Below, in pieces: positions 1 to 32,406 of a stretch of DNA of 51,554 nucleotides. Position numbers and translations under genes: made by a program. Source of the stretch: a virus (taxonomy: Duplodnaviria > Heunggongvirae > Uroviricota > Caudoviricetes); the IMG/VR virus record IMGVR_UViG_2531839664_000034; one strand, written 5' to 3'. The first letter of the stretch is position 1, and every line of letters starts with the position of its first letter. Under the pieces are notes generated by a model, which saw only the letters and a list, made by a program, of their open reading frames with translations, ran no database searches and was not told the DNA's origin.

Positions 1-31
1 ATGAAATCATTAACTGCAGTGCGTAAAAAAA

Positions 32-60
32 GTAAGCGTAAACTGACCGCCGTATGTAGC
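32..60. repeat. Extra IS66-family terminal-repeat-like sequence (GTAAGCGTAAACTGACC...), not paired with any element end in the window
   Basis: Starts with the GTAAGCG motif shared by the other IS66-type ends in this window (101, 352, and the reverse complements at 3060 and 5259). Confidence 0.3.
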
Positions 61-171
61 CATCAGACGAGAATTGGTAACTTAGACGCCCATCTGATAT
101 GTAAGCGTACAGCCTGAACCGTCTGGTCAGAATCTGACGAATTAGACAAAGTGGTGTCCACCAAATAAGTA

Positions 172-351
172 GTGGGAACCAAAGTGTCAGATATGCAGAA
201 AAATGTGACTCCCGGCAGGCGAAAAGGCTGCCCTAATTATCCTCCCGAATTTAAACAGCAGCTCGTTGCTGCCTCCTGTGAACCCGGGATATCCATCTCA
301 AAACTTGCTCTTGAAAATGGCATTAACGCCAATCTGTTGTTCAAATGGCGA
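172..351 (+). pseudogene. IS66 TnpA (orfA) of element B, N-terminal fragment, interrupted at 351/352
   Basis: ORF 172..420 is TnpA-like (PEFKQQLVAAS...GINANLLFKWR) up to position 351; the frame is continued exactly after the inserted element at 3061. Confidence 0.7.
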
Positions 352-433
352 GTAAGCGCCCCATCTGCGACGTCTTGTGAAAATTGTCCTGTCTGGCAAC
401 AATCGCGCCCATCTATATAGATGGACACGAACG

Positions 434-1108
434 ATGAATTCCCAGACAAAAAAAGATATTCCCTGCTTCCGTTCTTATTTGCCTGATGCTCTGCGTTTAA
501 GATTTGAAGATAAACTGACCATCCGGGCCATCGCTCAGCGTCTAGGTCTCAGTCATTCCACAATACATACGCTTTTTCAGCGATTTATTGCATCCGGTAT
601 CGCATGGCCATTGCCCGATTCAGTTTCATTAGCTCAGCTTGATGCCATCCTTTATGCCAACAGAAAGAAGGAATTAACAGAGCCTCAAATCAGCGAAGGC
701 ACATGGCGAAAAGAACGGCGAGCCAGCTACAGCCGTGAATTTAAGGTCCGTCTGGCTAAGCAGGCATTACAGCCCGGTGCTGTTGTTGCCCGGATCGCCA
801 GAGAGCACGGTATCAATGATAACCTGCTGTTTAAATGGAAAAGCCAGTACGAGGACGGCTTACTGAGCGATGATGACATACAGGAATGCATGCCTGTCCC
901 GGTGGCTCTGACTGATACGCCAGAGCCGACCAGACCAGTTACAAATCCCTTCTGGCGTAACAAGCCTGATGAGTGCCCTGAGAGTGATCCCGGAAACGTC
1001 CCACGGTGCGAGCTGCATCTTAAATCAGGTGTGGTAAAACTGTTTGACCCTCTCACTCCGGAAATGTTACGGGCGCTAATCCGCGAAATGAAAGGAGGTA
1101 CCCGATGA
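434..1108 (+). CDS. IS66-family accessory protein TnpA (orfA), long form with N-terminal HTH-like region
   Basis: Contains YSREFKVRLAKQALQPGAVVARIAREHGINDNLLFKWKSQY typical of IS66 orfA; ORF track starts at 377 but that ATG lies only 25 bp inside the IR, so 434 (MNSQTKK) preferred; start uncertain. Confidence 0.6.
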   Translation: MNSQTKKDIPCFRSYLPDALRLRFEDKLTIRAIAQRLGLSHSTIHTLFQRFIASGIAWPLPDSVSLAQLDAILYANRKKELTEPQISEGTWRKERRASYSREFKVRLAKQALQPGAVVARIAREHGINDNLLFKWKSQYEDGLLSDDDIQECMPVPVALTDTPEPTRPVTNPFWRNKPDECPESDPGNVPRCELHLKSGVVKLFDPLTPEMLRALIREMKGGTR

Positions 1109-1452
1109 TAACGCTGCCAACCGGTACCAGAATCTGGATCATCGCTGGCATCACAGATATGCGTTGTGGCTTCAACGGCCTGGCTTCGAAGGTGCAGAAC
1201 ACGCTGAAAGATGACCCGTTCTCCGGGCATATCTTCGTCTTCCGGGGCCGCAGTGGCAAAATGGTGAAAATACTGTGGGCCGATCGTGACGGGTTATGCC
1301 TGTTCGCCAAACGCCTGGAACGGGGCCGCTTCGTCTGGCCGGTAACCCGGGAAGGGAAAGTGCACCTGACGCCAGCTCAGTTATCCATGCTACTGGAGGG
1401 GATCGCGTGGCAACATCCCAAACGGACAGAACGGCCTGGCATCCGGATATAA
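1105..1452 (+). CDS. tnpB: IS66-family TnpB (orfB)
   Basis: 115 aa, MITLPTGTRIWIIAGITDMRCGFNGLA...; overlaps orfA stop (ATGA); canonical IS66 orfB size and sequence. Confidence 0.85.
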   Translation: MITLPTGTRIWIIAGITDMRCGFNGLASKVQNTLKDDPFSGHIFVFRGRSGKMVKILWADRDGLCLFAKRLERGRFVWPVTREGKVHLTPAQLSMLLEGIAWQHPKRTERPGIRI

Positions 1453-1471
1453 CCCGTGATAAAACAGGGGA

Positions 1472-3028
1472 ATGAACAACACACTCCCCGACGACATCGA
1501 GCAACTGAAGGCCCTGCTGATCGCACAGCAGGCTGTTATCGTCCGTCTGTCTGGTGAAATAACCGGCTATGCCCGCGAGATCAGCTCACTCAGAGCGCTG
1601 GTCGCTAAACTGCAGAGAATGTTGTTCGGTCGCAGCAGCGAGAAAAGCCGCGAGAAGACAGAAAAGAAGATCGCACGGGCAGAAACGCGTATAACCGAGC
1701 TCCAGAACAGGCTTGGTGAGGCGCAGTTGCAACTCACCTCAATGGCCGGAGAGACAGCGCCGAAAACATCAGACTCTCCCGTCCGCAAAGCACTTCCGGC
1801 AACACTTCCCCGTGACAGGCAGGTTATCTCCCCGGCAGAAACCGAATGCCCCGTCTGCAGCGGCAAACTGAAACCGCTGGGAGAAAGCATCTCTGAACAA
1901 CTGGATATCATCAACACCGCGTTCAGGGTAATCGAAACGGTTCGCCCAAAACTGGCCTGCAGCCGGTGCGACTGTATAGTTCAGGCTCCGCAGCCACCAA
2001 AACCCATCGAGCGCAGTTACGCCAGTCCGGCTCTGCTGGCCCGCATAATCATGGCTAAGTTCGCCGAGCATCTGCCGCTGTACCGTCAGTCGGAAATCTA
2101 TGCCCGCCAGGGCGTGGAGCTGCACCGCAATACGATGGGGCGCTGGGTTGACATCATGGGAGAGCAGCTTCGCCCGCTGTATGATGAACTGAAGCACTAT
2201 GTGCTGATGGCGGGTAAAGTGCATGCCGATGACACGCCGGTAAATGTACTGGAGCCGGGTCAGGGTAAAACCCGTACCGGACGGCTGTGGGTCTATGTTC
2301 GTGACGATCGCAACGCCGGTTCGACCATGCCGGCAGCGGTGTGGTTCTCATACTCTCCCGACCGCAAAGGCATCCACCCACAGCAACATCTGGCGGACTA
2401 CAGAGGTATCCTGCAGGCCGATGCATATGCGGGTTACAATGCTCTTTACGAAAGCGGTCAGGTAACCGAAGCGGCTTGTATGGCACATGCCCGACGCAAG
2501 ATCCACGATGTACATGTCCGCCATCCAACGACAGTAACGGGAGAAGCGCTCCGTCGTATCGGGGAACTGTACGCTATCGAGGCTGAGATCCGCGGCAGTC
2601 CGGCAGAAGAGCGACTGGCGGTCAGAAAAGCCAGAACGGTACCGCTAATGCAGTCGTTGTATGAGTGGCTCCAGGGGCAGATGAGCACGCTGTCGCGCCA
2701 CTCGGATACAGCGAAAGCGTTCACCTATCTGCTGAAGCAATGGGACGCTCTGAACGAATACTGCCGCAATGGCTGGGTGGAGATCGACAATAACCTGTGT
2801 GAAAACGCCCTCCGGGTAGTTGCACTGGGGCGGCGTAACTACATGTTCTTCGGCTCTGATGGTGGAGGCGAGAGTGCGGCAGTGATGTACAGCCTGATCG
2901 GTAGCTGCAAACTTAACGGAATCGAGCCGGAAACGTGGCTACGCCACGTGATCAGTGTAATCAACACCTGGCCTGCCAACCGCGTGAAAGAGTTGTTGCC
3001 CTGGAATGTCACTCAATCTGTAAACTAA
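1472..3028 (+). CDS. tnpC: IS66-family transposase TnpC
   Basis: 518 aa with N-terminal coiled coil/leucine zipper, CxxC...CxxC zinc-finger (CPVCSGKL...CSRCDC) and DDE-region motifs ([14 protein letters not shown]) typical of IS66 TnpC. Confidence 0.85.
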
Positions 3029-3060
3029 TTTTTACCCCACGTCCTTCACGGTGCGCTTAC

Positions 3061-3290
3061 AATGGCGACAACAATGGCGCGAGGGAAAGCTGCTATTACC
3101 TTCTTCAGAGAGCCCCCAGCTACTTCCTGTGACTCTCGATGCAGCTGCCGAACAGCCAGAATCGCTCGCAGAGGACCCGGAAACCCTCAGTATCAGCTGT
3201 GAGGTAACGTTCCGGCACGGGACGCTCCGCTTCAATGGCAATGTCAGCGAAAAGCTCCTGACTCTGCTGATACAGGAACTGAAGCGATGA
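3061..3290 (+). pseudogene. IS66 TnpA (orfA) of element B, C-terminal fragment
   Basis: Reading 349-351 (cga) directly into 3069 onward gives ...LFKWR-QQWREGKLLLPSSE...LLIQELKR in one frame, matching ORF 3051..3290. Confidence 0.7.
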
Positions 3291-3634
3291 TCCCGTTACC
3301 TTCCGGGACCAAAATTTGGCTGGTTGCCGGTATCACCGATATGAGAAATGGCTTCAACGGCCTGGCTGCGAAAGTACAGACGGCGCTGAAAGACGATCCC
3401 ATGTCCGGCCATGTTTTCATTTTCCGGGGCCGCAGCGGCAGTCAGGTTAAACTGCTGTGGTCCACCGGTGACGGACTGTGCCTCCTGACCAAACGGCTGG
3501 AGCGTGGGCGCTTCGCCTGGCCGTCAGCCCGTGATGGCAAAGTATTCCTTACACAGGCGCAGCTGGCGATGCTGCTGGAAGGTATCGACTGGCGACAGCC
3601 TAAGCGGCTGCTGACCTCCCTGACCATGCTGTAA
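3287..3634 (+). CDS. tnpB: IS66-family TnpB (orfB), element B
   Basis: 115 aa [27 protein letters not shown]..., paralogous to 1105..1452. Confidence 0.85.
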
Positions 3635-3683
3635 ATCTCTTTATCCTGGTTGTCACAGAATAAGCCCGGTAAAATACGGGCTT

Positions 3684-5222
3684 ATGAACGACATCTCTTC
3701 TGACGACATCTTCCTGCTGAAACAGCGCCTGGCCGAACAGGAAGCGCTGATCCACGCCCTGCAGGAAAAGCTGAACAACCGGGAGCGCGAAATAGACCAT
3801 CTGCAGGCGCAGCTGGATAAACTCCGCCGGATGAACTTCGGCAGTCGTTCCGAAAAAGTCTCCCGCCGTATCGCACAAATGGAAGCCGATCTGAACCGGC
3901 TTCAGAAAGAGAGCGATACGCTGACTGGTAGGGTGTATGACCCGGCAGTACAGCGTCCGTTGCGTCAGACCCGCCCCCGTAAGCCGTTCCCTGAATCACT
4001 ACCCCGTGACGAAAAGCGACTGTTGCCTGCGGCGCCGTGCTGCCCGAACTGCGGCGGTTCACTGAGCTATCTGGGCGAGGATACCGCCGAACAGCTGGAG
4101 TTGATGCGTAGCGCCTTCCGGGTTATCCGGACGGTACGGGAAAAACATGCCTGTACTCAGTGCGATGCCATCGTGCAGGCACCTGCACCTTCGCGGCCCA
4201 TCGAGCGGGGTATCGCCGGACCGGGGCTGCTGGCCCGCGTGCTGACCTCGAAGTATGCAGAGCACACCCCGCTGTATCGCCAGTCAGAAATATACGGCCG
4301 GCAAGGTGTGGAGCTGAGCCGTTCACTGCTGTCGGGCTGGGTGGATGCATGCTGCCGGCTGCTGTCTCCGCTGGAAGAGGCGCTTCATGGCTATGTCATG
4401 ACTGACGGCAAACTCCATGCCGATGATACCCCGGTCCAGGTACTGCTGCCGGGTAATAAGAAGACGAAGACCGGGCGGTTGTGGGCGTATGTTCGTGATG
4501 ACCGCAATGCCGGGTCAGCGTTGGCACCTGCAGTGAGGTTCGCTTACAGCCCGGACAGAAAAGGCATCCATCCGCAGACTCATCTTGCCTGCTTCAGCGG
4601 TGTGCTGCAAGCGGATGCGTACGCCGGGTTCAACGAGCTGTATCGCAATGGTGGGATAACGGAAGCTGCCTGCTGGGCTCATGCCCGCCGAAAGATCCAC
4701 GATGTGCACGTCCGCATCCCGTCAGCACTGACGGAAGAAGCCCTGGAGCAGATCGGTCAGTTGTACGCCATAGAGGCGGATATAAGGGGAATGCCGGCAG
4801 AGCAGCGGCTTGCTGAACGTCAGCGAAAAACGAAACCGCTGTTGAAATCCCTGGAAAGCTGGTTGCGTGAAAAGATGAAGACCCTGTCGCGACACTCAGA
4901 GTTGGCGAAGGCGTTCGCGTACGCACTTAACCAGTGGCCGGCACTGACGTACTATGCGAACGATGGCTGGGTGGAAATCGACAACAACATCGCTGAAAAT
5001 GCCCTGCGGGCGGTCAGTCTGGGTCGTAAAAACTTCCTGTTCTTCGGCTCTGACCATGGTGGTGAGCGGGGAGCGCTAGTGTACAGCCTGATCGGGACGT
5101 GCAAACTGAATGACGTGGATCCAGAAAGCTACCTTCGCCATGTGCCTGGCGTCATAGCAGACTGGCCGGTCAACCGGGTCAGCGAACTGCTTCCGTGGCG
5201 CATAGCACTGCCAGCTGAATAA
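3684..5222 (+). CDS. tnpC: IS66-family transposase TnpC, element B
   Basis: 512 aa; same architecture as 1472..3028 (CCPNCGG...CTQCD zinc finger, [14 protein letters not shown]). Confidence 0.85.
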
Positions 5223-5261
5223 CACATCCCCGTCAATACGGTTCTTGCTGCACGCTTACCA

Positions 5262-5477
5262 ACAAACCGGCCCACACCAGAAGCGATTATGGCAAACTAC
5301 CAACTGAATGAACAATTACTGGAGGGATGCAGGCCCTGGATTGTTATTTTTGATGACGTTCTTACTGCCGGTAGCCATTTTAAAGCGATGAAAAGCCTGA
5401 TACTACAACATATTCCTGAAGCCTGTATACTGGGACTCTTTGTTGCCCGAACAACCCGGGGAGCTCAAATTATTTAA
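5262..5477 (+). pseudogene. C-terminal fragment of a phosphoribosyltransferase (PRTase)-fold protein, 5-prime end removed by IS66 element B
   Basis: Open frame runs from the IS66 boundary (5259) without a plausible N-terminus; PRTase signature hydrophobic-DD-V-x-T-x-G (WIVIFDDVLTAGSHF) near the C-terminus. Confidence 0.4.
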
Positions 5478-5494
5478 AAAGGGTAAAGTACTCC

Positions 5495-7879
5495 TTAAAA
5501 TGAAAGCCCTTCACCATCAGCCACAATCCTGTACCCCATCGCCTTATAACCCCGCTGGCGTTTATCCCACATTCTGAGCAGCACTGGATACGCGGTATCC
5601 ACAAAATCAATGATCCTGACATCGCTTTTACCGGTATGCTCTCTGTGTAGACGTCCCGCATACTGCTGTAATGTCCCTTTCCATGACACAGGCATGGCAA
5701 GAATCAGCGTATCCAGCGGAGGGTGGTCAAATCCCTCACCAATAAGTCTGCCTGTTGACAACAAAATACGGGGAGAATCAGGAGGAAGAGCATTCAGCCC
5801 GGATATCAGCATCGCACGCTTTTTTTTCGATAGTCGTCCATGGAGAATAAAGGGGGACAATTTCAGTGAATTCATCACTGATGCTATCTCATCCAGATGA
5901 TCTGTACGTTCAGTCAGTACCAGAACTTTTCGCCCCTGCCCGAAAGCTTTCATGGCTTCTTCAGCTATCGCCACCGTTCTGTCATGATCCAGAGCAATTT
6001 CTCTGAAAATATCCTGGATTCTCGCATCCGATGGTAAATGACCAGATGTAAAACGGGAACGGGTCAGTACCTCCAGATTATGTGGGCTTTCCTTCGGGCG
6101 GACCGCTGTATGGCGAATGGCACCACAGTACATAAAAATAATGGGATGCAGACCATCCCGTCGGATTGGTGTTGCCGTCAGGCCAAGCAGATATCTGGCA
6201 TTCGTTTCCTTCAGAATCGCAGAAAATGAAACCGCGCCAATATGATGGCACTCATCCACAATGATTTGCCCATAATTCCTGACCAGAGGTTCAACTTCTC
6301 CGTGTCTGGATATGGACTGCACCACCGCAATATCAATATTGCCACAGGGTTTATGTTTACCTCCCCCGATAATACCAATATTGTCACCAACCTGCAGAAA
6401 CACCGCGAGACGCTCCTGCCACTGCTTCAGCAATTCAGTCCGGTGTACCAGTATCAGTGTATTCACTTTCCGTCTGGCAATCACTGCCGCTGCGGTAACT
6501 GTCTTACCAAAAGCCGTTGGCGCACAAAGCACACCAGTGTCATAACGGAGTAATCCCGAAACGGCCTCTTCCTGCTCCGCTCTGAGGTTTCCCATAAAAA
6601 CGGCATTACATTCCGTCCCGGCAAATCGTTTATCGATTAATTCTGCAGCAATATTGTTGTCCCTAAGGAAAGATAATACGCTGTCCAGACATCCCTGGGG
6701 CAACGCAATGTGTTGCGGGTAATTCTCCGCACAACCTATAACACGGGGCTTATTCCAGACTGACATACGCATTGCCTGAGCCTTATAAAACTCAGGGTTC
6801 GGAAATGCTGCCAGCCGAATAAGTCGGTTAATCAGCACCTGAGGTAATTGCGCTTTTTCGAAATAGATCTGGTTTGCCAGCGTGATTTTCAGCGGTTCTG
6901 CAATAGAAATATTCAGTCTGTTTCCTGATGATTTTTTCCCTTCCCATGGCGTACCCAGGTCTTCTTCGTTGATAAAGTTCACATCCAGAGGATGGATACT
7001 TCCTGTAGCCCGTAATATCGTCGGTTCAATATTCTGCACATTCATCGGGATCACCGATGCAAGAAAAGCCCATTGATCAGAATAAGGCTGGAAATTCATA
7101 TCAACAAAAACACTTCCCCCCGATTCACGCGGTCTTTTTTGCAGAGGTAATGCTATGAGATTACCAAATCCCCCTTTTGGCATCGTATCCTGATTAGGAA
7201 ATAATCGGTCATAAGAACCCAATCGCAGCTGTCGAGTTCGATTACACGTATAACTAATAATAGCAGTCCCCAGACGGCGAGCTTCGCGGGCCGAAACTCG
7301 TGAAGCAAAAAATATCCAGACATGCGCTCCCTGACGTGAACGGGATATTTCCAGCGCAGCGGGTACACCCAGCTCATCACAGGATCGCATGAATGCGGAT
7401 GCATCCTTCTGCCATTCAGCTTCATCAAAATCAACTGCCAGAAAATAACAGGAATCATCTTCCAGCAACGGATACATCCCGACAGTATGGGTACCTGCCA
7501 GATGGTAGTAGATGACGAGATCAGATACAGGAATCAACTGACGGTGAGCGCAGTCCCCACATTTTATCCGGGGCTTACCGCATATTCTCGCCTGCCATTC
7601 GTTAGCGCAGGCAGGAGAGTACCCTGATTTGCCGCTGGTTTTACTTTCCCATCTAAGTGCCCATACATCATCACGCCCGCGAAACAACCGACGAAATAAT
7701 GCAACCTTCTCATTGGTGGATAATACAGAAACGCGCTGCACAGAGATCGGCGGTTTACGTCGCCATTCAATCCCATGAGCTTCAAGTAATGAGACCAGAC
7801 GGGCATTTTCTGCCCTCAATGCAGCTAATTCATCGCTGTCAGATTTATGAACCATATTCGTTACCTGTATCCGATCCAC
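5495..7879 (-). CDS. Primase-like (AEP/PrimPol-like) N-terminal domain fused to SF2 DEAD/DEAH-type helicase
   Basis: Helicase motifs APTAFGKT (I), IIVDECHH (II), GLTATP (III), QQYAGRLHR (VI); N-terminal Cys cluster (CGKPRIKCGDCAH) and AEP-like motifs LAVDFDEAEW and GAHVWIFF. Track start 7879 is GTG; ATG at 7855 (MVHKSDSD) has a better Shine-Dalgarno. Confidence 0.6.
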   Translation of the reverse strand: MDRIQVTNMVHKSDSDELAALRAENARLVSLLEAHGIEWRRKPPISVQRVSVLSTNEKVALFRRLFRGRDDVWALRWESKTSGKSGYSPACANEWQARICGKPRIKCGDCAHRQLIPVSDLVIYYHLAGTHTVGMYPLLEDDSCYFLAVDFDEAEWQKDASAFMRSCDELGVPAALEISRSRQGAHVWIFFASRVSAREARRLGTAIISYTCNRTRQLRLGSYDRLFPNQDTMPKGGFGNLIALPLQKRPRESGGSVFVDMNFQPYSDQWAFLASVIPMNVQNIEPTILRATGSIHPLDVNFINEEDLGTPWEGKKSSGNRLNISIAEPLKITLANQIYFEKAQLPQVLINRLIRLAAFPNPEFYKAQAMRMSVWNKPRVIGCAENYPQHIALPQGCLDSVLSFLRDNNIAAELIDKRFAGTECNAVFMGNLRAEQEEAVSGLLRYDTGVLCAPTAFGKTVTAAAVIARRKVNTLILVHRTELLKQWQERLAVFLQVGDNIGIIGGGKHKPCGNIDIAVVQSISRHGEVEPLVRNYGQIIVDECHHIGAVSFSAILKETNARYLLGLTATPIRRDGLHPIIFMYCGAIRHTAVRPKESPHNLEVLTRSRFTSGHLPSDARIQDIFREIALDHDRTVAIAEEAMKAFGQGRKVLVLTERTDHLDEIASVMNSLKLSPFILHGRLSKKKRAMLISGLNALPPDSPRILLSTGRLIGEGFDHPPLDTLILAMPVSWKGTLQQYAGRLHREHTGKSDVRIIDFVDTAYPVLLRMWDKRQRGYKAMGYRIVADGEGLSF

Positions 7880-8009
7880 TGAGGCACCACGGCAGAAATT
7901 CGGGTCCCCTACACTGATGACAAAGCGCCCCGCCCTCTTCTGCCTATTAACTCAAGCACCTCCCAACAACTTACAGAAACTTAATTCTAATACCTAATAC
8001 AACTGTAAT

Positions 8010-8573
8010 TCAGTTATGTCGTGGTCGGCCCCGGTTGCTTTTTTCGGGAAGCCTGCTACGGCCCAGAATAATACCGTGTTCTTTCTGATCCTGTTTAGCC
8101 AGATAGCTAAGGGCGTAACGTAAGTTGTCTACCGCGGACTTATCACTATAGTGCATCACGTGATCGATACGCACCGGGTATTTGTCTTTAGCCCTGCACA
8201 GGTGAAAATAACCCTCCCCTTCCGTGATCCGCCTCCAGATATCTCCTAGTTGCCTGGATATCTGATAAGATTTCTTGTGACGTTGCCCATCCAGGTAGCC
8301 GACAAAATGAATATGAAGCCCTTTGTCTGGTGTATATTCCATTACCCAGTAATATCCCGCCAGCATCGTCTGGGTTTCGCTAAGTAAACGGTATATTTCC
8401 ATACACATACTGTGCCTACAGGAATGACCAAAACTGGGCGAGTCTTTCCTGTAGGCAAAATCAATTCTGAAAGGTAACAGTTTAGAAAAACGTTGAAACA
8501 TACCGTCCATGTGTTCATTCACGTCTTTCAGAATCATGAAATCCATTTTGTAATTGGGATTGGCATTATACAT
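8010..8573 (-). CDS. YagK/YfjJ-family (inovirus Gp2-like) protein typical of P4/CP4-57-like islands
   Basis: 187 aa; resembles the remembered YfjJ family (e.g. YPVRIDHVMHYSD region) and sits in the yfjI-yfjJ order of CP4-57-like elements. Confidence 0.5.
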   Translation of the reverse strand: MYNANPNYKMDFMILKDVNEHMDGMFQRFSKLLPFRIDFAYRKDSPSFGHSCRHSMCMEIYRLLSETQTMLAGYYWVMEYTPDKGLHIHFVGYLDGQRHKKSYQISRQLGDIWRRITEGEGYFHLCRAKDKYPVRIDHVMHYSDKSAVDNLRYALSYLAKQDQKEHGIILGRSRLPEKSNRGRPRHN

Positions 8574-9585
8574 TTTATAGTCCTTACTTTATAAAACTCA
8601 CAGGAAGAGAGAATTACGTAAATACTGAGAGTAGAGAAACGCCGTACCACGGCATTAATAAACGAAGTAAACCAGCAGCACAGACAACCTGATAAAACTG
8701 TTTTGTATTACCGCATTACTGTAATGAGGTAATACTTCAGAATACAGTGAGACTCTCTTAAACTGAGAACCAGTACGAATTACAATGGAAAAACACACCT
8801 CATAGAATTGAGTTTCAGGAAGCACCACTAAATTCTTTACAGGAAGTAATCTGACATTCACAAAAGTCAGCTATAGAATAGCCACAGACAACATCGCTAT
8901 TAATATTGTCGTACCATTAAGTGAAAACAGCGACTCTGCAGAGAGCAGCCTACAGATATTTAATCAGTAGCATAAAAGAATAATGACATACAGACCATAC
9001 GCTACACACCATAAAAAGATTGTTTCATACAAAAAAGATAATATTTACCCATGCTTATAAACTGTAACGGAGCTATAACGTACGAACTAAAGACAATATA
9101 CTCTAATAGTGTGCTGGTACGTAACCAGTGTTAAATGCAAACCAGACATACATTCAGCGGATTAACTTTCTCAATATTACGCTATGAGTGTAGTAACATA
9201 ATTTACACATAACTAAACTCCATACACCACCACACTGTAGTATATGGGGATAGACGCATTACGCACATACAGAATACTCAGCATAAAGAGGAGTGACATT
9301 ACGATAAAAAGAGACAACATAACAGATAACATAACTTCCACTAATAATACTAATTAACCTTAATTATTTATTGAATACGAAAACAATGAAGTGCCCTCCT
9401 TATCTAAGGCCAAAGCCAGCAATATCCTGTACAACACTCTATCCAATAGTAAATAGTAGTTACACCAGTTATATTTACTGACTGACCTGTACCAGAGTTC
9501 TGTAATACAACACTGACATGGTCATGGCATTAATCTCCTCCGCAAGTAACGGAGGAGACTATATGTTACTCAACGATTAAGTCGT

Positions 9586-11019
9586 TCAGAGGTCAAAGTT
9601 AGGTGCGACACACAACGTTTTTCCCTCAATAACCGGTACAACTCTGTTTTGTTCATACAGTAAATCCAGTAACCAGTTGATTTTATCCTTTTTCCGGAAA
9701 CGGTTCGGACCACGCTGTAAAATGTCATTTTTTTTCATACAGAGGATCCCCTTCTCAATGCAATAGCTTTTTATCCAGTTGAAAAGTTCAAGCTCCTCTG
9801 GAATGAGTCGCACAGGTACGGTCAGAGCAGTGTTGTCAAAAGTTAACGGATTAGACAACCGCATATACTCATTACCGTACCATATTGCTAATTCTCTCGC
9901 CATTTCTGCAGTGTAAGGGGAAATCTCCCCCTCTTCACCGCTCGAATGGTAAATAAGTCCTGCCAGTCTTGCCATATACTCTGCATTTTTGGCAGCATAT
10001 TCCCGACAATGTCTTAAAGGCCCCAATCCCCCCAGTTTCGATTCCACATCGTTGTAATAATCCGTCCAGATTCTGGCAGCCTGAGGAGAAAAGTGAAGGC
10101 AACGTCGTTCACCACTCATCGCCAGACTTTCATCAATAAGTTCATTGATCCTCTTATCAAATAACTCCTGATACTGTGATGAATAATTATCTCCGGTTAT
10201 TATCCTTGTCCCCTGCATTGATGTTGGTTGACACATCAAAAACCTTGCATGATGTCCTGACGTTTTCACAAGTTCTTTTTTTCGCGTACAAAAACCTTTG
10301 TGGTAAACATCAGGCTGAATCATCGCCGACATCGTCAGTCTTGGCTCCTTCAAATTAATTCCGGGAGATGATTTCCTGTCGATGAAAAGAGAACCTCCAT
10401 CCCACAAAGTGTTAATAATTCCCAGTTTACTCATGGCCCGGCTGTCAAAAATTACTCCCCCTTCACTGGATACAAGAGCAAAAGAACGATTGCTATCGGA
10501 GTAATATTTTAACATTCCCTCTATCGTTGTATCATTAAAAATTGTTCGACGTATCTGCGGCGGAACAGGAGAGTTATTCAGATGCGTTTCAAGCTCTGAT
10601 TCTGTTGCCTTGTAATCTTTACCGGCACGAATCTCTTTATGAAATTTTGATTCCAGCGCTTTTTGTTTTTGCTCCCATATTTCCTTTTCTGTACTGTAAT
10701 TCTCAACCAGTTTCGCGTATTCTTCCGCCAGGGCTTCATCCCTGAGATAAAATGCTTTCATAAACACTTTATCCACGGTCGTTTTCCTTTCACCGGAATC
10801 AGCCAGAATCAGAGAGTAAATATTAACGGGCCCACGTAAATTTCCAGGTCTGCACACGTCAATCTGATTCTGACAGGCAATTGACATCGCTGTTAATGCG
10901 GATGTCGCCACCATAGCCAAAGGAGCCTGTGTATTTTGTTGAGTTTCAATTATTGCATTTCTCACCAGCGGTGGTAGTGCATATATCGGATAAGGATTTT
11001 CTGGTGCTAGTAAGCACAT
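9586..11019 (-). CDS. YfjI-like (DUF3987-type) island protein
   Basis: 477 aa; size, position next to AlpA-like gene and remembered similarity to CP4-57 YfjI; function unknown. Confidence 0.5.
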   Translation of the reverse strand: MCLLAPENPYPIYALPPLVRNAIIETQQNTQAPLAMVATSALTAMSIACQNQIDVCRPGNLRGPVNIYSLILADSGERKTTVDKVFMKAFYLRDEALAEEYAKLVENYSTEKEIWEQKQKALESKFHKEIRAGKDYKATESELETHLNNSPVPPQIRRTIFNDTTIEGMLKYYSDSNRSFALVSSEGGVIFDSRAMSKLGIINTLWDGGSLFIDRKSSPGINLKEPRLTMSAMIQPDVYHKGFCTRKKELVKTSGHHARFLMCQPTSMQGTRIITGDNYSSQYQELFDKRINELIDESLAMSGERRCLHFSPQAARIWTDYYNDVESKLGGLGPLRHCREYAAKNAEYMARLAGLIYHSSGEEGEISPYTAEMARELAIWYGNEYMRLSNPLTFDNTALTVPVRLIPEELELFNWIKSYCIEKGILCMKKNDILQRGPNRFRKKDKINWLLDLLYEQNRVVPVIEGKTLCVAPNFDL

Positions 11020-11114
11020 AAAGCCTCCATTTTCATTAATGGGTTAGTAAAGTTGCAGCAATTTCCGCTACAATAGCGAAAATAGCTGCTATTCAGACTG
11101 AAAATACAAACAGT

Positions 11115-11342
11115 TCATCTGGTCTGAATCCACCAGAGAAGGTCACTTAGTAACCAGCCACAAGATTTCTTTCCGATAGTCTTACGCGGTGGGTAGTTTC
11201 CCTCTCGTTCAAGTTTCCAGGCTTGTGAACGGGAAATTGAGGTGATCTCTTTTCGTTCCTTTTCACGTACCAGTCTGTCACCCTCAGTCCCATAGGCTTT
11301 CAAAATTACTGAACGTTGCTCATCTGTTAATGGAACCCACAT
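11115..11342 (-). CDS. AlpA-family small HTH regulator
   Basis: 75 aa with C-terminal ...YPPRKTIGKKSCGWLLSDLLWWIQ pattern resembling AlpA/phage transcriptional regulator. Confidence 0.45.
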   Translation of the reverse strand: MWVPLTDEQRSVILKAYGTEGDRLVREKERKEITSISRSQAWKLEREGNYPPRKTIGKKSCGWLLSDLLWWIQTR

Positions 11343-11978
11343 GACGGCCCTCCTGATATATCAATGATTCTTATCTCAGTTGTGAGCATGAAATGACTGA
11401 ATTTCCTGGACAATCCATAGTGGAGATTCCGTTGTCATATTGCTCACAGAACACCCATGGACAGCAAGGTACATACGAAAACAAATCAAGTCAAGTTAAG
11501 GCAAGTAAAACAATACTTGACTCACAAGTCCACTCATAGGTCAATATGTGTTGATTAGCAACAAAACAACCAATAATGCACATTACAAACAATGATTTTA
11601 AGCCAAGAAGTGGTTTTCACTGTTGACAATGACACAAAATGAATCTAGTATCGACTTCATGTTATGCTCAGATAAACTTCTGACAGTGATAGTAAAGAAG
11701 AGAAGGAGGGGGTTAAATTTGTGACAAAGATCACAAAAATAAATTAATTTTTACTATTCACAATAGGAGGGAAAGAGAGCCAGGCATTTTACCTGTCATT
11801 GAAATGACAACAACAGCTTCAACAGATCGGAATATTCAGGAGGAGGAAGAAGAAGGAGATCTGACGGGTGTTATAATTGTTACAACACGCTGGAGGAAAA
11901 TTATCGTAATAATAGATGCATTCTCAGGTATACCCTGTATCACCCCGAAAACACGGCAGGCATCCGTTTTATTAGTAG

Positions 11979-13685
11979 ATGCAGACTCAGTATCAACGTA
12001 TCCTTTCAGGAGATAACATCGATTTTAACTGCCAGTATCCGGTATGCGGCAAAAGGAAACCTTCTTACATAATGGTAAATCAGACTATGCAACAAAATCA
12101 GTACTATCGTATTTTATCCGGAGAATCCCGCCCATTCCCTGGCATATATGAGGCTGTTTCCGAACAACTCCTTTTGCTCATTTTTAAGGCACGTCAGCTA
12201 TATCAGGATCCAGAATATCGCCCCTGGTTTGAAGAACAGCACAAAGTTCTCTTGGCATTGCGTGATAATACAGAGCTCCAGAAAATTTTTAACAAACAAA
12301 GAAAAGAAAATTTTGCTCTTGGCGCATCTACATCGTCTCAACCCACTGCTCTTACTAATGCGCTTAATGTTATGTGCCATTTATACAATGGCTTTGATGA
12401 AGGAAATATCAGCCTGAAAAGCTGGGGAGCGATGCAAGAGGTACAGACAACACCAGACTTTTTCAGCCTGGGACCAAGAACCTGGAAAACACCTGAACTG
12501 GCAAAGTTTGTAGGAGATGATTTATTTAATATTCTGACTGAATGTAAAGCCTGGAGTTCACCAATTCCAGCAGAAGCCCGGCAGGGGTATTGCCATCAGG
12601 ATCTGTCTGTTGCGCACTCCTGCACCTCAGAGTTGCTGGCACACCTGAAGCAGTATCATGAAATAGATGAATCAACAATACTTGCCATAACCATTGGTCT
12701 GGCGGTCAACGAATTCTACCAGTATAAGCAAAATATTCCAGAATGGCTTTCCTGTTTTGAGAATAAGAACAAATGGCCCTGGGACTGCAGGAAGTCAGAT
12801 ACTGAAGATGTGCACAGACTGAGAGAACGACTATCGATAATCGGATGTACAGAATTCGTAAAAAATATGTTCTCAGTCGCCAGTCAGCATGAAATAAAGA
12901 CAATGTACAATATTTATGTCCATATTTATGCAGCTGAAATCTGCGGTTGGGTAAAAACAAGCATGGCATATTTTAAACCAACAGATTTCATCCAGTACAC
13001 ATGGAAATTCGCAACAGTTACTCCGGATAAAGATGAAAAAACCGAGAATACGACCGCATGGGAAAGGGATTATTGTCAGATAACCATACAACGAGATGAA
13101 CTCCTTAGATTGATTCGCACTAATACTCTGCAGGATGCAGCAATTCATCTTTCAGGCTGCCTGCAATATGCATATCTGGAGTCTGTAAAGAATGATATTG
13201 ACTATCCTGGAATAGCCCCTAATGCTGAAGAAAAGAAAATGAAATACACAGATTCTATTGAATTTTCTGGAATTAGGAATAACATCATAAATGCAGTAAA
13301 ACGGCTGGAATCATTTGAAAAATGGTATGAAACTAATAAAGTTTTGTTGGTAAGTAATAAAACAATACGAACAGAGAAGATTGACGTTGTTGTACGACTT
13401 GCGGGACTGAAAGCCTATGATTTGCAGGAAGGGGTTCCTGATGGTCTGAAATGGAAAGTTAAAGATGGCATAAATGAACGCATCAAAACCGATACCAGTT
13501 TATGCCTGCCTCAGGATATCAGTGATACATCGCTAAACCGTTATCGTCACGCTGTGACGCGCATTGTCAACGACGAAATCGACACATTACTGATGGAACA
13601 GAAGAAAAAAAATAAAAGATTCCCCTACAGCAAAGATCGACATGCGATCCAACCTTTATGGAGCAAATGCGTGATCGAGCAGTAG
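11979..13685 (+). CDS. Hypothetical protein, AT-rich island cargo, no recognisable domain
   Basis: 568-aa ORF, opposite strand to the island backbone, lower GC than neighbours; start uncertain (internal ATGs at 12070, 12088). Confidence 0.5.
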   Translation: MQTQYQRILSGDNIDFNCQYPVCGKRKPSYIMVNQTMQQNQYYRILSGESRPFPGIYEAVSEQLLLLIFKARQLYQDPEYRPWFEEQHKVLLALRDNTELQKIFNKQRKENFALGASTSSQPTALTNALNVMCHLYNGFDEGNISLKSWGAMQEVQTTPDFFSLGPRTWKTPELAKFVGDDLFNILTECKAWSSPIPAEARQGYCHQDLSVAHSCTSELLAHLKQYHEIDESTILAITIGLAVNEFYQYKQNIPEWLSCFENKNKWPWDCRKSDTEDVHRLRERLSIIGCTEFVKNMFSVASQHEIKTMYNIYVHIYAAEICGWVKTSMAYFKPTDFIQYTWKFATVTPDKDEKTENTTAWERDYCQITIQRDELLRLIRTNTLQDAAIHLSGCLQYAYLESVKNDIDYPGIAPNAEEKKMKYTDSIEFSGIRNNIINAVKRLESFEKWYETNKVLLVSNKTIRTEKIDVVVRLAGLKAYDLQEGVPDGLKWKVKDGINERIKTDTSLCLPQDISDTSLNRYRHAVTRIVNDEIDTLLMEQKKKNKRFPYSKDRHAIQPLWSKCVIEQ

Positions 13686-13777
13686 AGTTCTGAGGGGATA
13701 ACCGAGCTGTTATCCCCCGTTTATTCTGCCAACTCTCAGGTCTGTCAGAGTTCCAAGAATACGATGCGGCTGGCAAA

Positions 13778-14374
13778 TTATGCGGCTTTTCCATTAACAG
13801 ATTCGGCCACAAGAACAACACCGTGTTTATTTCGATCAGGATGTTCACTCCAGATTTCTGATTCAGGAATACTTTCCCCGTCATAGCAGATCCGATCGCC
13901 ATCAAACGGATAATACCGTGCGGAATCAGTATCTAAAATAAACACTTTCAGATTCGTTGAACGACGCGCTATATGCTGCCAGAGGGCTTTACCTCCTTCA
14001 TATTGCTCGTTATCACTTAATAGTATAACGCCCGCTTTTGTGGCTACCGTTTCATATACAAACGTCGCAAGGCCAACATCACGTACAGCCCCATCAACAA
14101 CAATCCCTTCAATCTGAGCGACGTCCTGCTCTTCCCAGAATTTCCGGACAAACACCCCTTCAAGCTGTGAGCGACGCTGAAGCTCCAGAGTGGCAACAAC
14201 TTTATGGCGAATATCACCATCAATAACAGAAGGTGCAGCTTCGATTACCGCAGCGAACGGAGTCTTTGGATCCCAGATGATCTGGTAAAGCACGCCCTGA
14301 ATAGTTACTCCATCCAGTATCGAAAAACGACGAGCTACAGTAGCAGGGGAGTAAGACATTGGAATTACAGCCAT
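13778..14374 (-). CDS. Hypothetical protein downstream of integrase
   Basis: ORF 13778..14404; ATG at 14374 (MAVIPMSYS) preceded by GAGGGG Shine-Dalgarno; no recognised motif. Confidence 0.5.
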   Translation of the reverse strand: MAVIPMSYSPATVARRFSILDGVTIQGVLYQIIWDPKTPFAAVIEAAPSVIDGDIRHKVVATLELQRRSQLEGVFVRKFWEEQDVAQIEGIVVDGAVRDVGLATFVYETVATKAGVILLSDNEQYEGGKALWQHIARRSTNLKVFILDTDSARYYPFDGDRICYDGESIPESEIWSEHPDRNKHGVVLVAESVNGKAA

Positions 14375-14503
14375 TTTTGAATCCCCTCTGAGTAATACAG
14401 GCACAAAAATTTACCTCAATAATTATAGTAAACAATACAAGAACTAGGTGCATCAACAATACCCATCAATTGTACGCAATTCGTACAGTAACCAGGAACT
14501 CCC

Positions 14504-15820
14504 TCACCTTCTGCCAAACAGATTGACAACATTATTGCCTGTTTGCTGTTGATAGTTATTAACCCGATCCTCCCAGATCTCAAGTGCTCTGCGTTTTTCT
14601 GGCAAATAATCGTATCGATCATAATGTTTTGAACTGACATCGTTCAACGCATGATTTTGAATACGATCGCGGATTTCCTTACTGATTCCAGCTTCTCCCA
14701 TTAACGTTTTACAGGTCCGACGTAAGTCACGTGCTGTAAAAATTTTAAAGTCAGGATTACAAGCCCGGAAATACATGATAGCGCGAGCCAGACTGTCCGT
14801 ACGAACCGGACGCTTACCATTAGTCGAAAGCGGGAAAATGTAAGGGCTCGATTTTTCTTTTGTTAACTCCTGCACACAGGCTAATTCCTGTAATGCTGAT
14901 TCAGTCAACGGTATCAAATGCTCTCGTTTATTTTTAGAGACATCCGCAGTCACCAGCAGCGTTTTTTGCTGAAAATCAACATCACACCACTGACTGGCGA
15001 TCATTTCAAAGGGACGTTGCCCTCCGGTATAGATACAGAATCGAATCAAATGTTGCATCAATAATCCAACGTTGGTTGCTTCAGCAAAATGTTCCATTAG
15101 AAAACGCAACTCTTCGAGTGTCAGCCAGGTGTCACCGACTTTTTCTGCAGATGACTGTTTCGGTATCACTGATACAGGATTGGCCTCCAGCCCAAAACTA
15201 ATCCCTACACTTGTGTTCATCGGATCGTTATCAGCTTTCAGACCATAGTTAAATGCAGCCATCAGGTAAGAACGGATCCGGTTAGAGTGAACCACAGCAC
15301 CGCGCTGAATGATCCCGGCCAAGATATGTTTAATCTGTCCGGAAGTCACATCTTTAGCTTTAGTCTCACGGGGGATCACTGTATAGCATTCATTTTCAAG
15401 GCGTTTCAGAACATCCTGCCATGTTCTCTTATTATCAATTTTCATTTTGTTAACATAACCATGAATCAATGCTTCAAATGAACCCTGTGATTGATGGAGT
15501 TGTCTCCGCTGCTGTTCTGCAAGCTGTTGTCGCTCCAGTTCTGTCTGGGGATCCTTTCCTTCAATGAGCCAGGCACCATACTTTTTTGCCAGTTCGTTCG
15601 CTGTGGCCAGTTTCATCTCAGGCCATATACCCAATTGAATGAATCTTTCTTTTGTCCCTTTTTCCACGTAATAGCGGAAATAGAAAATTTTGCTGCCAGA
15701 AGACTGAACTTTGACGCCAAGTCGTCCAGTGCCACGTTGAGAGCTATTGCTCCAGACATAGAACGATGTCTTTTTTGCTTTTAATGCTCGAATAGCTGTT
15801 TCAGTTAGATTGACGGCCAT
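14504..15820 (-). CDS. int: P4-type tyrosine integrase
   Basis: 438 aa; N-terminal arm-binding-like region, C-terminal catalytic region with conserved R...HxxR...Y spacing (e.g. HDLRRTCKTLM); lies about 200 bp from a tRNA 3-prime fragment. Confidence 0.85.
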   Translation of the reverse strand: MAVNLTETAIRALKAKKTSFYVWSNSSQRGTGRLGVKVQSSGSKIFYFRYYVEKGTKERFIQLGIWPEMKLATANELAKKYGAWLIEGKDPQTELERQQLAEQQRRQLHQSQGSFEALIHGYVNKMKIDNKRTWQDVLKRLENECYTVIPRETKAKDVTSGQIKHILAGIIQRGAVVHSNRIRSYLMAAFNYGLKADNDPMNTSVGISFGLEANPVSVIPKQSSAEKVGDTWLTLEELRFLMEHFAEATNVGLLMQHLIRFCIYTGGQRPFEMIASQWCDVDFQQKTLLVTADVSKNKREHLIPLTESALQELACVQELTKEKSSPYIFPLSTNGKRPVRTDSLARAIMYFRACNPDFKIFTARDLRRTCKTLMGEAGISKEIRDRIQNHALNDVSSKHYDRYDYLPEKRRALEIWEDRVNNYQQQTGNNVVNLFGRR

Positions 15821-16016
15821 AGAACCTCTTTTCTAAATCAGTAACAATCAAAATAACTCGTAAATTTGGGTCAGGTAATGGGTCAGGTAACGATCGTACA
15901 ATGGAGAAAAAACGGAACCAAGCGGAAACAGAAGAAATTACATAATTAGTTGATTATAAACAATTAATAAAACAATTACGAACAAACCAAAACAATACAG
16001 AATGGACTTGCCTCAT

Positions 16017-16063
16017 GACTCATAATCGCTTGGTCGCTGGTTCAAGTCCAGCAAGGGCCACCA
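16017..16063 (+). tRNA. 3-prime 47-nt fragment of a CAU-anticodon tRNA (tRNA-Ile2/Met-like); probable att core, not an intact gene
   Basis: GACTCATAATCGCTTGGTCGCTGGTTCAAGTCCAGCAAGGGCCACCA: anticodon loop CTCATAA, T-arm GCTGG-TTCAAGT-CCAGC, acceptor 3-prime strand and CCA; no matching 5-prime acceptor strand (GGCCCTT) upstream. Confidence 0.6.
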
Positions 16064-16818
16064 AATCATCATTCATGTATCAGGAAGAGTTAAGGGTACA
16101 AGGGGTACTCGATGGCGGTCTATATTTCATGACTAACGCCATTTCAAGGAAGAAGTGCGGTGGGTGGTTTCGAATGAGGGCTGGTGTTTTGGTACGTGGC
16201 ACGCCACTGCAATGTATTTATTCATCAGTACTCATTCAAAAGTACCTGGAAAAAATGCCCGCTATGCCAAGCGGGCAAATTGCTTACATGTGGAATTAAG
16301 TAATTAACGATAAAGCCAGAGTATTATCATTTATCATGCCTCTTCATTTAATCAGGTTAATTACTCAAATCACTGAACTATTCTCTGTTCGCTCACTGAT
16401 GATAAGTGAGTGTCACAACCACGATTTGTATGCGGGCCAATGCCGTAGAGTAAGGATGAAATGTCTCTGCCACGCCTTAAACATCTACTACTGACCAGAA
16501 TACCCGTCGCAGGCAGATGAGTCTTGTGAGCGTTACAGGAGTCTGGCTTTGCTCATTAATCAACGCTATTTAGATATAAATTTCTAACACTCGAAAAACG
16601 AATTTCACTAATAAATTATAACGGGTGGTTTTTATCATACAGCGAAATAACTTTTTGTTTATTAAATTTAACATTCTTGTGCTAATTTAATTAAAAGTTC
16701 CATGCGTAGCATGTGAAGCAGTTAATGTTAGTAATCGTCTCAAATGAGCGATTTTTTATAGTGACAAACAGTAATAACGTTAAAAATAGCCATGTAGACA
16801 ATAACTGAGGAATAGGCA

Positions 16819-18297
16819 ATGTTAGTTAGTAAAAGTAATGGCCATAACGTTAATACAGTTTTGGGTAGTAGAAGTTGTAATGAAAACAATTCTTCCAACC
16901 CCATGGAGCTACTAGCTTATAGTATTATAAATTTAATTTGTAAGGAAGCTGCCTCAGGGACATATCGCGGTGCTCTTGAAACTTTACAAAAAATGATGTC
17001 TGAATGTATATATCATGAAGGCAACGCCTTTGTCATTATGGGATCTGGAGAGCAATTAAAACGTATTAAATATGATGTTGATGAAAATAACTTAAAAGTA
17101 TTCAACGTATACTTTGATAATAATGAAGAGTTAGTTACTGATGGTGAGCCTGACGTAGTATGTTTAAGCAAGCAGGTCTGGGAAGATCTTCTCATTAAAC
17201 TAAAGCTGGAGAACAAAGAAAATGCGGTTTCTGAAACTGACCTGTCATCGAATAAAAATAATGTTGATCAGTTTATTGAATGCGCTAAGAGAAATGAACA
17301 GACCCTATTCGATAATATAAGAAAAAGTGATTTTCATGTTGATTCATTTAAGCTAGGTAGTACACGTAGTGTTATTTTAGAAACACAACCAAATGTCTGT
17401 ATGGAACCACATAATTTATATGACAACCAAATAGATAAGGTTTCACCTGTAACTAAAAACTCTCAGCAAGTTAAAGGCCACTATGGAGATAAATTTAAAG
17501 AAATGCAGATGTTCCTTAGCTAGATGAGCAATGCACTTCAACAGACTCCATCTTTGTCAGAGTCAAAGGAACACACCATAGATATTCAAAAAATAACGGA
17601 TGCCTTTGTGAAAGAATTCCGGGGGGTATTAATTGATAAAAATGGAAATTGTTCAGAACGTTTATTCAATTTTTATGAGTGCTGCTATAAGTTTTTACCA
17701 AGAGCGCAGCCTCAAGATAAAATCGAAAGCTATAATTCAGCACTACAAGCTTTTTCCATCTTTCGTTCATCTACTTTGAATAATAATGATGTAGGGTTTA
17801 ATTTCAAATTATTCCCAGAAGTCAAGCTGTCTGGTGAAAATCTTGAAACGGTATTCAAATACAAAAAAGGAAGTTTTGTCCGGGAGATAGCCAGAATTAA
17901 CATTACTCTCCAAAAAGAAGAGGATGGTTTATATAATTTAGGTGGATTGGATTTTAAGGGATGCTTCTTTTCTGGACAGAACTTCAGTAACTATGATATT
18001 CAATATGTGAACTGGGGAACGTCATTGTTTGATCTTGATACTCCGTGTATTTTTAATGCGCCTGCTTACAACAAGAGTAATGAAAAATCATTAAAACCTG
18101 TGAGCGAAAACGGTTTAAGTGGAGTCTTGACTGATCGTAATAATAAAATAAAACTCATCACGGGCGTGGCACCATTCGATGATATTTTATCTATGGATGA
18201 TGACTTTGATGATAGTTCCTCTGAGGATGATCCCGTTGAGAATAGTCCTGTTGTGACTAGTCCCGTTGTATCAAGTTCTAAAAGCAGTTTTCAATGA
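16819..18297 (+). pseudogene. Single reading frame of about 491 codons split by one in-frame TAG (17521-17523); hypothetical protein with pentapeptide-repeat-like segment
   Basis: ORFs 16819..17523 and 17524..18297 are in the same frame, separated only by the amber codon; segment GLDFKGCFFSGQNFSNYDIQYVNWGTSLFDLD is pentapeptide-repeat-like. Confidence 0.4.
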
Positions 18298-18548
18298 TTA
18301 ATAAATGGCTATTTTTACAAAGAGATAATAACGTAGATTGAAACAATATGTATTATTGATTGATTAAACGGGATTATTCTTCACACTACATCCATTTTAG
18401 TGTCACTACCAAAGAAAAATGGGCTACATTTTCATGTAACCCCTTGATTTATTTGGTGGGCTGGCAGTGACTGAATTGGTGCTGTAATTGGTTGAAATAT
18501 TTCATCTAATGTCTGGTTCAACTTTCCTTAGCTGCCTGAAAGTTTTTT

Positions 18549-18628
18549 GATCTCACCCAGCAATAACAGCGTTACGGTGCACCACGACTGACTGATGAAC
18601 TGCGTGCTCAGGGTTACCTCTTCAACGT
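18549..18628 (+). mobile_element. Scrambled IS3 remnant (left IR-like TGATCTCACCCAGCAATAA joined to an internal orfB fragment)
   Basis: Terminal sequence nearly identical to the IS3 end at 34288; following codons read [17 protein letters not shown], recalled as an internal IS3 orfB segment. Confidence 0.4.
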
Positions 18629-18703
18629 AAAACCGTGGCAGGAGGTCCGGACTGAAAAAACTGCTCAGGACATTATCGGCGGTGGACGCACGGGTAGTCT
18701 GTA

Positions 18704-18792
18704 AACCGAACCGACTGGGGCGCAGTATGTGGCATCTTGTCGTGCTGTTGGAGGAGCTGTGCAAACGTGGTATTAACTTTCGTGCTCTGGCC
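18704..18792 (+). pseudogene. Serine recombinase (resolvase/invertase) fragment
   Basis: Encodes NRLGRSMWHLVVLLEELCKRGINFRAL, resembling the conserved DRLGRS...G..F region of resolvases; only about 30 codons. Confidence 0.35.
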
Positions 18793-19208
18793 CAATCTAT
18801 ATTTGCCCAACAATGGGGGGACGAATGCTATAAAAGTAAAAGAATCTGCGATCTCAAAGTTATTGTGTGATTTTTATGTGAGCAGAAGATATTCATCAGA
18901 AACGATTATGTAAATCATTTTATTTTGCCGACGGCCTGATTGTCGAAAGAAAAGAATACCCCCGTATTCCCTGAATAGATTGACTTTTTTATCCAACCAT
19001 ACTTCAGCGCACTGCGTTTAAAAAATGCTTCTTTCTTATGTGGAATATCATCATTTCATCATGATGTCTTTGATGAGCGGTGAACACAATACACTTGCGC
19101 TGTCTCTTCAGGATGAATCCCCTGGTCTGGTGCCTGTGGGCTGATGTTGCAGCAGAGCTAAGGTCGCTTAAACGCTACTCAGTATTCACTTTTCAGAGGA
19201 TGAAATTT

Positions 19209-32352: not shown

Positions 32353-32406
32353 TGAACCGCCCCGGAAATCCTGGAGACTAAACTCCCTGAGAAAGAGGTA
32401 AACAGG

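Follow-up and report, generated by a model that had tools for sequence, protein, structure and literature searches.

The 47 nt at positions 16017–16063 (+ strand) of the analysed DNA are the displaced 3′ half of the tRNA gene ileY and represent attR of a ~ 71 kb tellurite/urease island. The analysed DNA, a stretch of 51,554 nt, is referred to below as the window. The 47-mer, GACTCATAATCGCTTGGTCGCTGGTTCAAGTCCAGCAAGGGCCACCA, is identical in 47 of 47 positions to positions 30–76 of Escherichia coli K-12 ileY, tRNA-Ile2(CAU). It begins with the last two bases of the anticodon-stem 5′ strand and continues through the anticodon loop (CTCATAA, 16019–16025) and the variable region to the T arm and the CCA end. 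When aligned to K-12 ileY, the 29 bases to its left show no likeness to the 5′ half of the tRNA. Judged from comparison of the junctions, the fragment is very probably the original 3′ portion of ileY, displaced by ~ 71 kb through integrase-mediated integration of a SpLE1-like island. The adenine at 16054 (A67) is the signature of ileY, as ileX carries G67. The initial annotation had described an orphan 3′ tRNA fragment from which the 5′ half is absent, and this description is confirmed; the single mismatch it named concerns ileX, while the match to ileY is perfect.

A complete cloverleaf overlapping 16017–16063 would contradict the proposed fragment status, and it could be ruled out by three approaches. 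ARAGORN called zero tRNAs in the whole window, Rfam returned zero tRNAs in the whole window at gathering score and zero between 15800 and 16300 at E ≤ 10, and the 76 nt at the would-be gene position did not form a cloverleaf on folding (z = −1.5). The sole Rfam match over the fragment, an antisense match to Plastid-ycf2, scored 19.8 bits against a cut-off of 65.7 bits and was treated as noise. Even when up to 3 mismatches were tolerated, the window proved to contain a single copy of the 47-mer, and equally a single copy of its 5′ 20-mer and of its 3′ 25-mer. None of the three was matched in 100 shuffles (0 matches), which excludes a chance origin of the 47-mer. The case also illustrates that an island border is recognisable from a tRNA half, without tools. 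An open reading frame of 94 aa (16015–16299, + strand), listed in RefSeq as hypothetical protein WP_000149518.1, starts with an ATG that straddles the junction of island and tRNA fragment and is formed only by this junction. Its reading frame runs through the tRNA half and no Pfam family was detected in it, and it is probably an annotation artefact, not a gene.

The nearest complete genome is the chromosome of E. coli 2015C-3107 (NZ_CP027317.1, reverse strand), a strain that the literature assigns to STEC O121:H19. Identity amounts to 100% in 4 kb around the site and to 99.99% over window positions 372–32353. The window differs in carrying an extra 1311-bp IS3-family copy at 32352–33662, and in its first ~ 370 bases, which join a different IS66 flank than in NZ_CP027317.1. 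It is therefore not literally this chromosome, and statements about sequences outside the window rest on the nearest complete genome. Bases 101–371 correspond, on the opposite strand, to sequence flanking a further IS66 copy near espI. This suggests that in the source genome of the window a ~ 40 kb part of the island, which holds ter/ure and is delimited by two IS66 copies in inverted orientation, was flipped.

The partner of the fragment was found in NZ_CP027317.1, where a tRNA-Ile(CAU) gene is located at 1881242–1881317 and the fragment at 1809844–1809890, on the same strand. In window orientation, this regenerated tRNA precedes the fragment by 71.4 kb, counted from the 3′ end of the tRNA, and falls beyond the left end of the window; both point in the same direction. 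Outwards, it neighbours the ygaQ-like amylase gene, glaH, lhgO and gabDTP, which corresponds to the neighbourhood of ileY in K-12. Complete tRNA gene and cognate fragment thus occupy one replicon in the same orientation, the 3′ fragment downstream of the tRNA gene and the gene of a tyrosine integrase (14504–15820, − strand) between them. The suggestion in the initial annotation that the fragment is the distal repeat and not the primary junction is borne out by the regenerated tRNA and the integrase-bearing island in between.

To delimit the insertion, K-12 ileY was taken as the empty site and aligned with both junctions. At attL, agreement with K-12 extends from the upstream flank to the end of tRNA position 49, whereas at attR it sets in at tRNA position 30 and continues onward, with homology starting exactly at 16017. 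Intact ileY of K-12, in which the island is absent and the gene is followed by ypjC-ypjB-pinH-ypjA, is accordingly composed of the left part of attL and the right part of attR, with the switch within positions 30–49, as in a precise insertion into a clean empty site. The first difference between attL and attR is at tRNA position 50. Their perfect identity is limited to 20 bases, GACTCATAATCGCTTGGTCG (16017–16036, + strand), which is below many tRNA-island repeats, and the remainder is homologous and diverged. As attL follows K-12 to position 49 and attR from position 30, the crossover lies inside this segment. Sequence on the island side shows conservation as far as ...ATGAC in 30 related loci. 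In addition, upstream of the integrase gene in Tenebrionibacter intestinalis (L024), the tRNA match ends right after GACTCATAAT and is followed by complete divergence, a junction suggestive of insertion into a secondary site that is not a tRNA gene, or of subsequent rearrangement. Combining these two features narrows the crossover site toward the anticodon loop, and we suggest that strand exchange probably occurs there, within tRNA positions 30–49.

In RM8352, a sister strain of serotype O121:H19, an identical integrase and island reside at ileX. In RM8352, attL combines the ileX 5′ half with the very 3′ half that the island supplies at ileY in 2015C-3107, and the terminator-like hairpin and the motif downstream of it are also unchanged. 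At attR, the unchanged island arm meets the 3′ half native to ileX, followed by the nfeF flank. The ileX gene of 2015C-3107 is empty; it is intact and native, with nfeF directly after it. Since the island occupies ileX in RM8352 and ileX is restored in 2015C-3107, the junctions indicate precise excision and reintegration in which the element retained its own tRNA half; on this comparison, the island left ileX precisely and entered ileY precisely. The two strains offer a worked example of an element that carries along a tRNA 3′ half of its own when it changes sites, and of how the stranded host half discriminates between two near-identical target genes (A67 for ileY, G67 for ileX).

Features of both loci were also considered with regard to a transfer from ileX to ileY by homologous (RecA-type) recombination or a larger rearrangement, not mediated by the integrase. 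Both junctions are purely ileY, in the flank as well as in the diagnostic positions T6 and A67, ileX was restored exactly within its own flanks, and ileX and ileY keep the relative orientation they have in K-12; moreover, homologous exchange would be needed twice, within segments of 20–29 nt. All this counts against such a transfer, in spite of the 74 of 76 positions identical between ileX and ileY and of 'a genome rearrangement' that, according to PMC8767318, accompanied the translocation in this strain. We regard it as very unlikely, and favour integrase-mediated excision and integration, although the history of the move may be more complex. Translocation by an inversion between ileX and ileY was rejected, because each locus has K-12-like flanks and a K-12-like orientation.

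Earlier publications cover the island itself, its borders with direct repeats, and its transfer from ileX to ileY (Nishida 2021, PMC8767318; Carter 2022, PMC9729726), and the finding is therefore real but ordinary. In PMC8767318, nearly identical SpLE1-like elements are described at ileX in eight O121:H19 lineage-1 (L1) strains, while in strain 1E (= 2015C-3107) the element is translocated to ileY, ileX and ileY sharing one attB. The tellurite resistance island (TRI) of 2015C-3107 is given with coordinates 1,881,241–1,809,856, a length of 71,386 bp, and direct repeats at its borders (PMC9729726). The element studied here is the same one in strain, coordinates, length (~ 71.4 kb), ter and ure genes, direct repeats and the shared ileX/ileY attB. 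No substantive difference was found, except that Table 5 of PMC9729726 labels the insertion site in 2015C-3107 as ileX. This label was rejected: the flanks glaH/gabDTP and ypjCB, together with the empty ileX, identify the site as ileY, in agreement with PMC8767318. The practical gain of the present analysis is a corrected site label in one published table, and the flagging of the 94-aa junction ORF as probably spurious.

The regenerated tRNA gene is chimeric, with a 5′ half from ileY and a 3′ half supplied by the island. Its T stem reads GTTGG/CCAAC against GCTGG/CCAGC in the fragment, the changes being paired, and the T loop differs as well. At position 67, the attL half carries G and the fragment carries A. 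A67 of the fragment pairs with the resident T6, whereas the chimera at ileY has a T6-G67 wobble; with the same island at ileX in RM8352, the pair is a perfect C6-G67. The chimeric gene is still called by ARAGORN and folds as well as the native one. The 3′ half at attL is thus non-host sequence, the same at ileX and at ileY, in line with the description of tRNA-gene islands as repairing the interrupted gene with sequence of their own, with the displaced fragment at the opposite end (PMC4383910).

The island-borne half of E. coli, GTTGGTTCAAACCCAACAGGGGCC, is identical to displaced host halves upstream of the integrase gene in six related loci (L009, L014, L015, L022, L035 and L048), which belong to Kluyvera, Atlantibacter, Chimaeribacter, an Enterobacter sp. 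and Escherichia sp. ESNIH1. This identity may point to the source from which the attP copy was acquired. In the acceptor stem, U6-G67 adjoins base pairs that are identity elements for TilS and IleRS. It could be imagined that the foreign 3′ half, with its U6-G67 wobble and new T arm, alters the amount of tRNA-Ile2 or its modification with lysidine, and hence decoding of AUA, in a different manner at ileY (wobble) than at ileX (C6-G67); we consider such an effect very improbable. If true, the choice between ileY and ileX would carry a phenotypic cost or benefit.

The island integrase (14504–15820, − strand; 438 aa) is a P4-type tyrosine recombinase with its start codon 196 nt to the left of the fragment. 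It combines an N-terminal arm-binding domain (PF13356, Arm-DNA-bind_3; 1.6e-14, 54.2 bits) with a C-terminal catalytic domain (PF00589, Phage_integrase; 2.1e-10, 41.1 bits), both above cut-off, while PF22022 with 23.6 bits stayed under its cut-off of 27. Reading by eye, the stretches TGGQRPFE, DLRRT and NHALNDVSSKHYDRY in the translation resemble box I, box II and the Tyr region, respectively. Its DNA sequence is 100% identical in O121, O145, O103, O45 and O111 STEC. The integrase module was detected in 455 of 5426 complete E. coli genomes, in 77 of them at ≥ 99% identity, including strains of O145:H28, O103:H2, O45:H2 and O111:H8. In the same complete-genome collection, a related element adjoins the ileY flank in 82 genomes.

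Between the integrase gene and the core, a tandem GGGTCAGGTAA-T-GGGTCAGGTAA (15868–15890, + strand) was observed, and no exact occurrence of the 11-mer GGGTCAGGTAA was found elsewhere in the window. The arrangement GGGTCAGGTAA(Y)GGGTCAGGTAA is near-invariant in 30 related loci, exceptions being one locus without the second copy (L028) and one with a mismatched first copy, AGGTCAGGTAA (L029). The same tandem is located ~ 60 nt downstream of the regenerated tRNA at attL, so that the motif is present on both arms. We infer that the tandems are putative arm-type sites on the P and P′ arms, bound by the N-terminal domain of the integrase. Most relatives (L007–L033) have a third, inverted copy, TTACCTGACCC, which precedes the tandem by ~ 10 bp (~ 23 bp between the two starts). 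In the window (15821–15866) and in E. albertii (L006), unrelated sequence is found at the corresponding place.

The proposed integration of the SpLE1-like tellurite/urease island into ileY would proceed by site-specific recombination of the tyrosine-recombinase type. In this scheme, attP brings its own copy of tRNA positions 30–76 with a terminator-like hairpin behind it, and in the circular form it is expected to read ...CTTGCCTCATGAC|TCATAATCGCTTGGTCGTTGG...ACCATATACAAC. The integrase, its N-terminal domain bound to the tandem GGGTCAGGTAA on both arms, would exchange strands in or beside the 7-nt anticodon loop. After the crossover, the chromosomal 5′ half would be joined to the attP copy, giving a functional chimeric tRNA at attL, and the old 3′ half of ileY would be pushed ~ 71 kb away to attR, with 196 nt separating it from the start codon of the integrase. 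A helix-turn-helix protein of the AlpA family (75 aa; 11115–11342, − strand; Pfam Phage_AlpA, 2e-13) is a candidate excision regulator or directionality factor and could act as excision factor. This assignment follows the analogy with AlpA of CP4-57.

The position of the integrase was addressed in a scan of its relatives, using one genome per species, which yielded 79 loci with 37–100% identity to the integrase. In about 50 of the 79, an Ile2-type 3′ fragment starting from tRNA position 29 or 30 is situated 170–260 nt upstream of the integrase gene and on the opposite strand. These loci span Enterobacterales and Vibrionaceae, and ARAGORN found no intact tRNA beside the integrase gene in any of them. 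T arms and acceptor ends vary from host to host in a paired fashion, as would be expected for displaced host halves. The initial annotation had placed the integrase beside the fragment, which is correct, and termed the geometry atypical, which is an overstatement given these related loci and CP4-6 at thrW. In many E. coli islands, for instance CP4-57 at ssrA, the integrase directly follows the intact tRNA. The evidence available in the sequences indicates that an integrase adjoining the fragment is a clade trait with precedents and not an anomaly, because it is shared by ~ 50 of the 79 loci, by K-12 CP4-6 and, according to PMC3064760, by OI-43/48. The locus can serve as a worked example in which the integrase position relative to the intact tRNA characterizes a clade.

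Some loci of the scan deviate in their composition. Two of them (L028 and L046) have an intact tRNA(CAT) ~ 2–2.3 kb beyond the end of the integrase gene, in fragment orientation. In L028, both ends of a small island of the same layout are present, implying a complete island of ~ 3.9 kb, and in L046 no fragment was found and the integrase gene is truncated. Remoter relatives carry halves of other tRNAs, with anticodon loops that read Arg-CCU, Thr-UGU and Ser-CGA. In a gammaproteobacterial MAG (L084, integrase identity 38%), an apparently intact tRNA-Ser(CGA) at 3775–3861 is located directly upstream of the integrase gene, on the opposite strand, an arrangement that none of the Ile2-type loci shows.

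The regularity of the breakpoint also bears on the explanation that the fragment is a tRNA pseudogene, formed by deletion of the ileY 5′ half, for example mediated by an IS element, with the integrase being unrelated to it. In E. coli W and B, the tRNA that precedes ypjC was removed by IS-mediated deletions (PMC3032704), and the island is rich in IS elements. Nevertheless, one breakpoint, at tRNA position 30, recurs in ~ 50 independent loci of many genera at a conserved distance to the integrase gene, the missing 5′ half exists 71 kb away, joined to island sequence, and the same junction is present at ileX in RM8352. No IS end or target-site duplication was seen abutting 16016. The probability of such a deletion is practically negligible, and displacement of the 3′ half by island integration is retained as the explanation.

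Among known systems, CP4-6 of K-12 at thrW resembles the studied element in the succession of tRNA, yeeU/cbtA-type toxin-antitoxin module, cargo, integrase on the opposite strand, and a displaced 3′ fragment that starts around position 28. Both att sites of CP4-6 are likewise accompanied by a repeated motif. It differs in its target, tRNA-Thr (CGU), and in its integrase. IntF was rejected as a close relative, being ~ 24% identical to the island integrase over the catalytic domain only, and the common layout therefore does not derive from close kinship.

Islands OI-43/OI-48 (SpLE1, TAI) of O157:H7, inserted at serW/serX, have similar cargo (ter, ure), an integrase of the P4 family and spontaneous precise excision (PMC3064760). 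According to the text of that paper, their integrase is likewise at the island end opposite serW/serX. In contrast to the anticodon loop of tRNA-Ile2, their att site is the last 14 bp of tRNA-Ser, and their integrase is SRL-PAI-like. Limited overall similarity between the O121 island and OI-43/OI-48 has been stated (PMC9729726).

Coliphage 186 uses the same two tRNA-Ile2 genes, ileY and ileX, as attB (PMC3448106), but it is a P2-like phage with a P2-type integrase and not a ter/ure island. All components of the Islander signature of tDNA islands (Hudson, Lau and Williams 2015; PMC4383910), i.e. the regenerated tDNA, the downstream 3′ fragment in the same orientation and the tyrosine integrase between them, are present in the studied element. 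No difference from it was noted, the position of the integrase inside the island not being part of the definition.

Between the tRNA and the fragment, the island comprises, in this order, a yeeU/cbtA-type toxin-antitoxin module, espI, the urease operon and ter genes, and many IS elements, followed by an AEP-TOTE primase-helicase, a YfjI/DUF3987 protein, the AlpA-family protein and the integrase. Genes of the terZABCDE type, terW and ureDABCEFG are annotated between the att sites, as characteristic of SpLE1-like tellurite islands, most of them to the left of the window. The window itself contains the right-hand ~ 16 kb (1–16016), with IS66 copies, the primase-helicase, a Gp2-like protein, YfjI/DUF3987, AlpA and the integrase, based on the RefSeq annotation of NZ_CP027317.1 and Pfam, and on the extent in PMC9729726. 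The primase-helicase is a protein of 786 aa (5495–7855, − strand; RefSeq annotation, Pfam) in which the AEP-TOTE primase is fused to a ResIII/DEAD helicase. It belongs to the integrase-proximal module, near the YfjI/DUF3987 and Gp2-like proteins.

To the right of the fragment, the native flank downstream of ileY continues with the pseudogenes ypjCB, pinH and ypjA (16064–22634, 6.6 kb, + strand), collinear with K-12 positions 2785808–2777981. The K-12 ypjA-pinH neighbourhood named in the initial annotation is confirmed by this alignment, in which 16017–22634 follows ileY-ypjC-ypjB-pinH-ypjA with 92–97% identity. Collinearity stops at 22634, which is the position of the right end of CP4-57 (psaA) in K-12. 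The same annotation had offered a tandem-island junction as another option: two successive elements would have entered ileY, ypjCB-pinH-ypjA being the second, older island. Decayed genes of mobile appearance are indeed found in this flank (the pinH recombinase remnant, an autotransporter pseudogene), and a prophage at ssrA starts at about 22634. Further copies of the 47-mer, for which a search had been proposed, are lacking in the window, as are those of its 20-mer core and 25-mer with 3 mismatches allowed. Island-free K-12 has the same gene order, ileY-ypjC-ypjB-pinH-ypjA, right after intact ileY, and the ypjCB-pinH-ypjA segment is without its own integrase next to a fragment. With one fragment in the window and a native flank of K-12 type on its right side, a tandem array is extremely unlikely, and a single island bordered by the displaced ileY half remains the preferred interpretation.

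Right of 22634, a lambdoid prophage integrated at ssrA carries espK, espN and nleL, and it is a separate element with a separate target. Two adjacent tyrosine recombinase genes (24390–26957) were observed near the distal end of this prophage, which appears to be another element with recombinase genes far from the intact target gene. At gathering score, Rfam reported two ALIL frameshift pseudoknots (32688–32804 and 35283–35399) in IS3-family copies, and STnc100 and AgvB (anti-GcvB sRNA) side by side at 44050–44302 in the prophage region.
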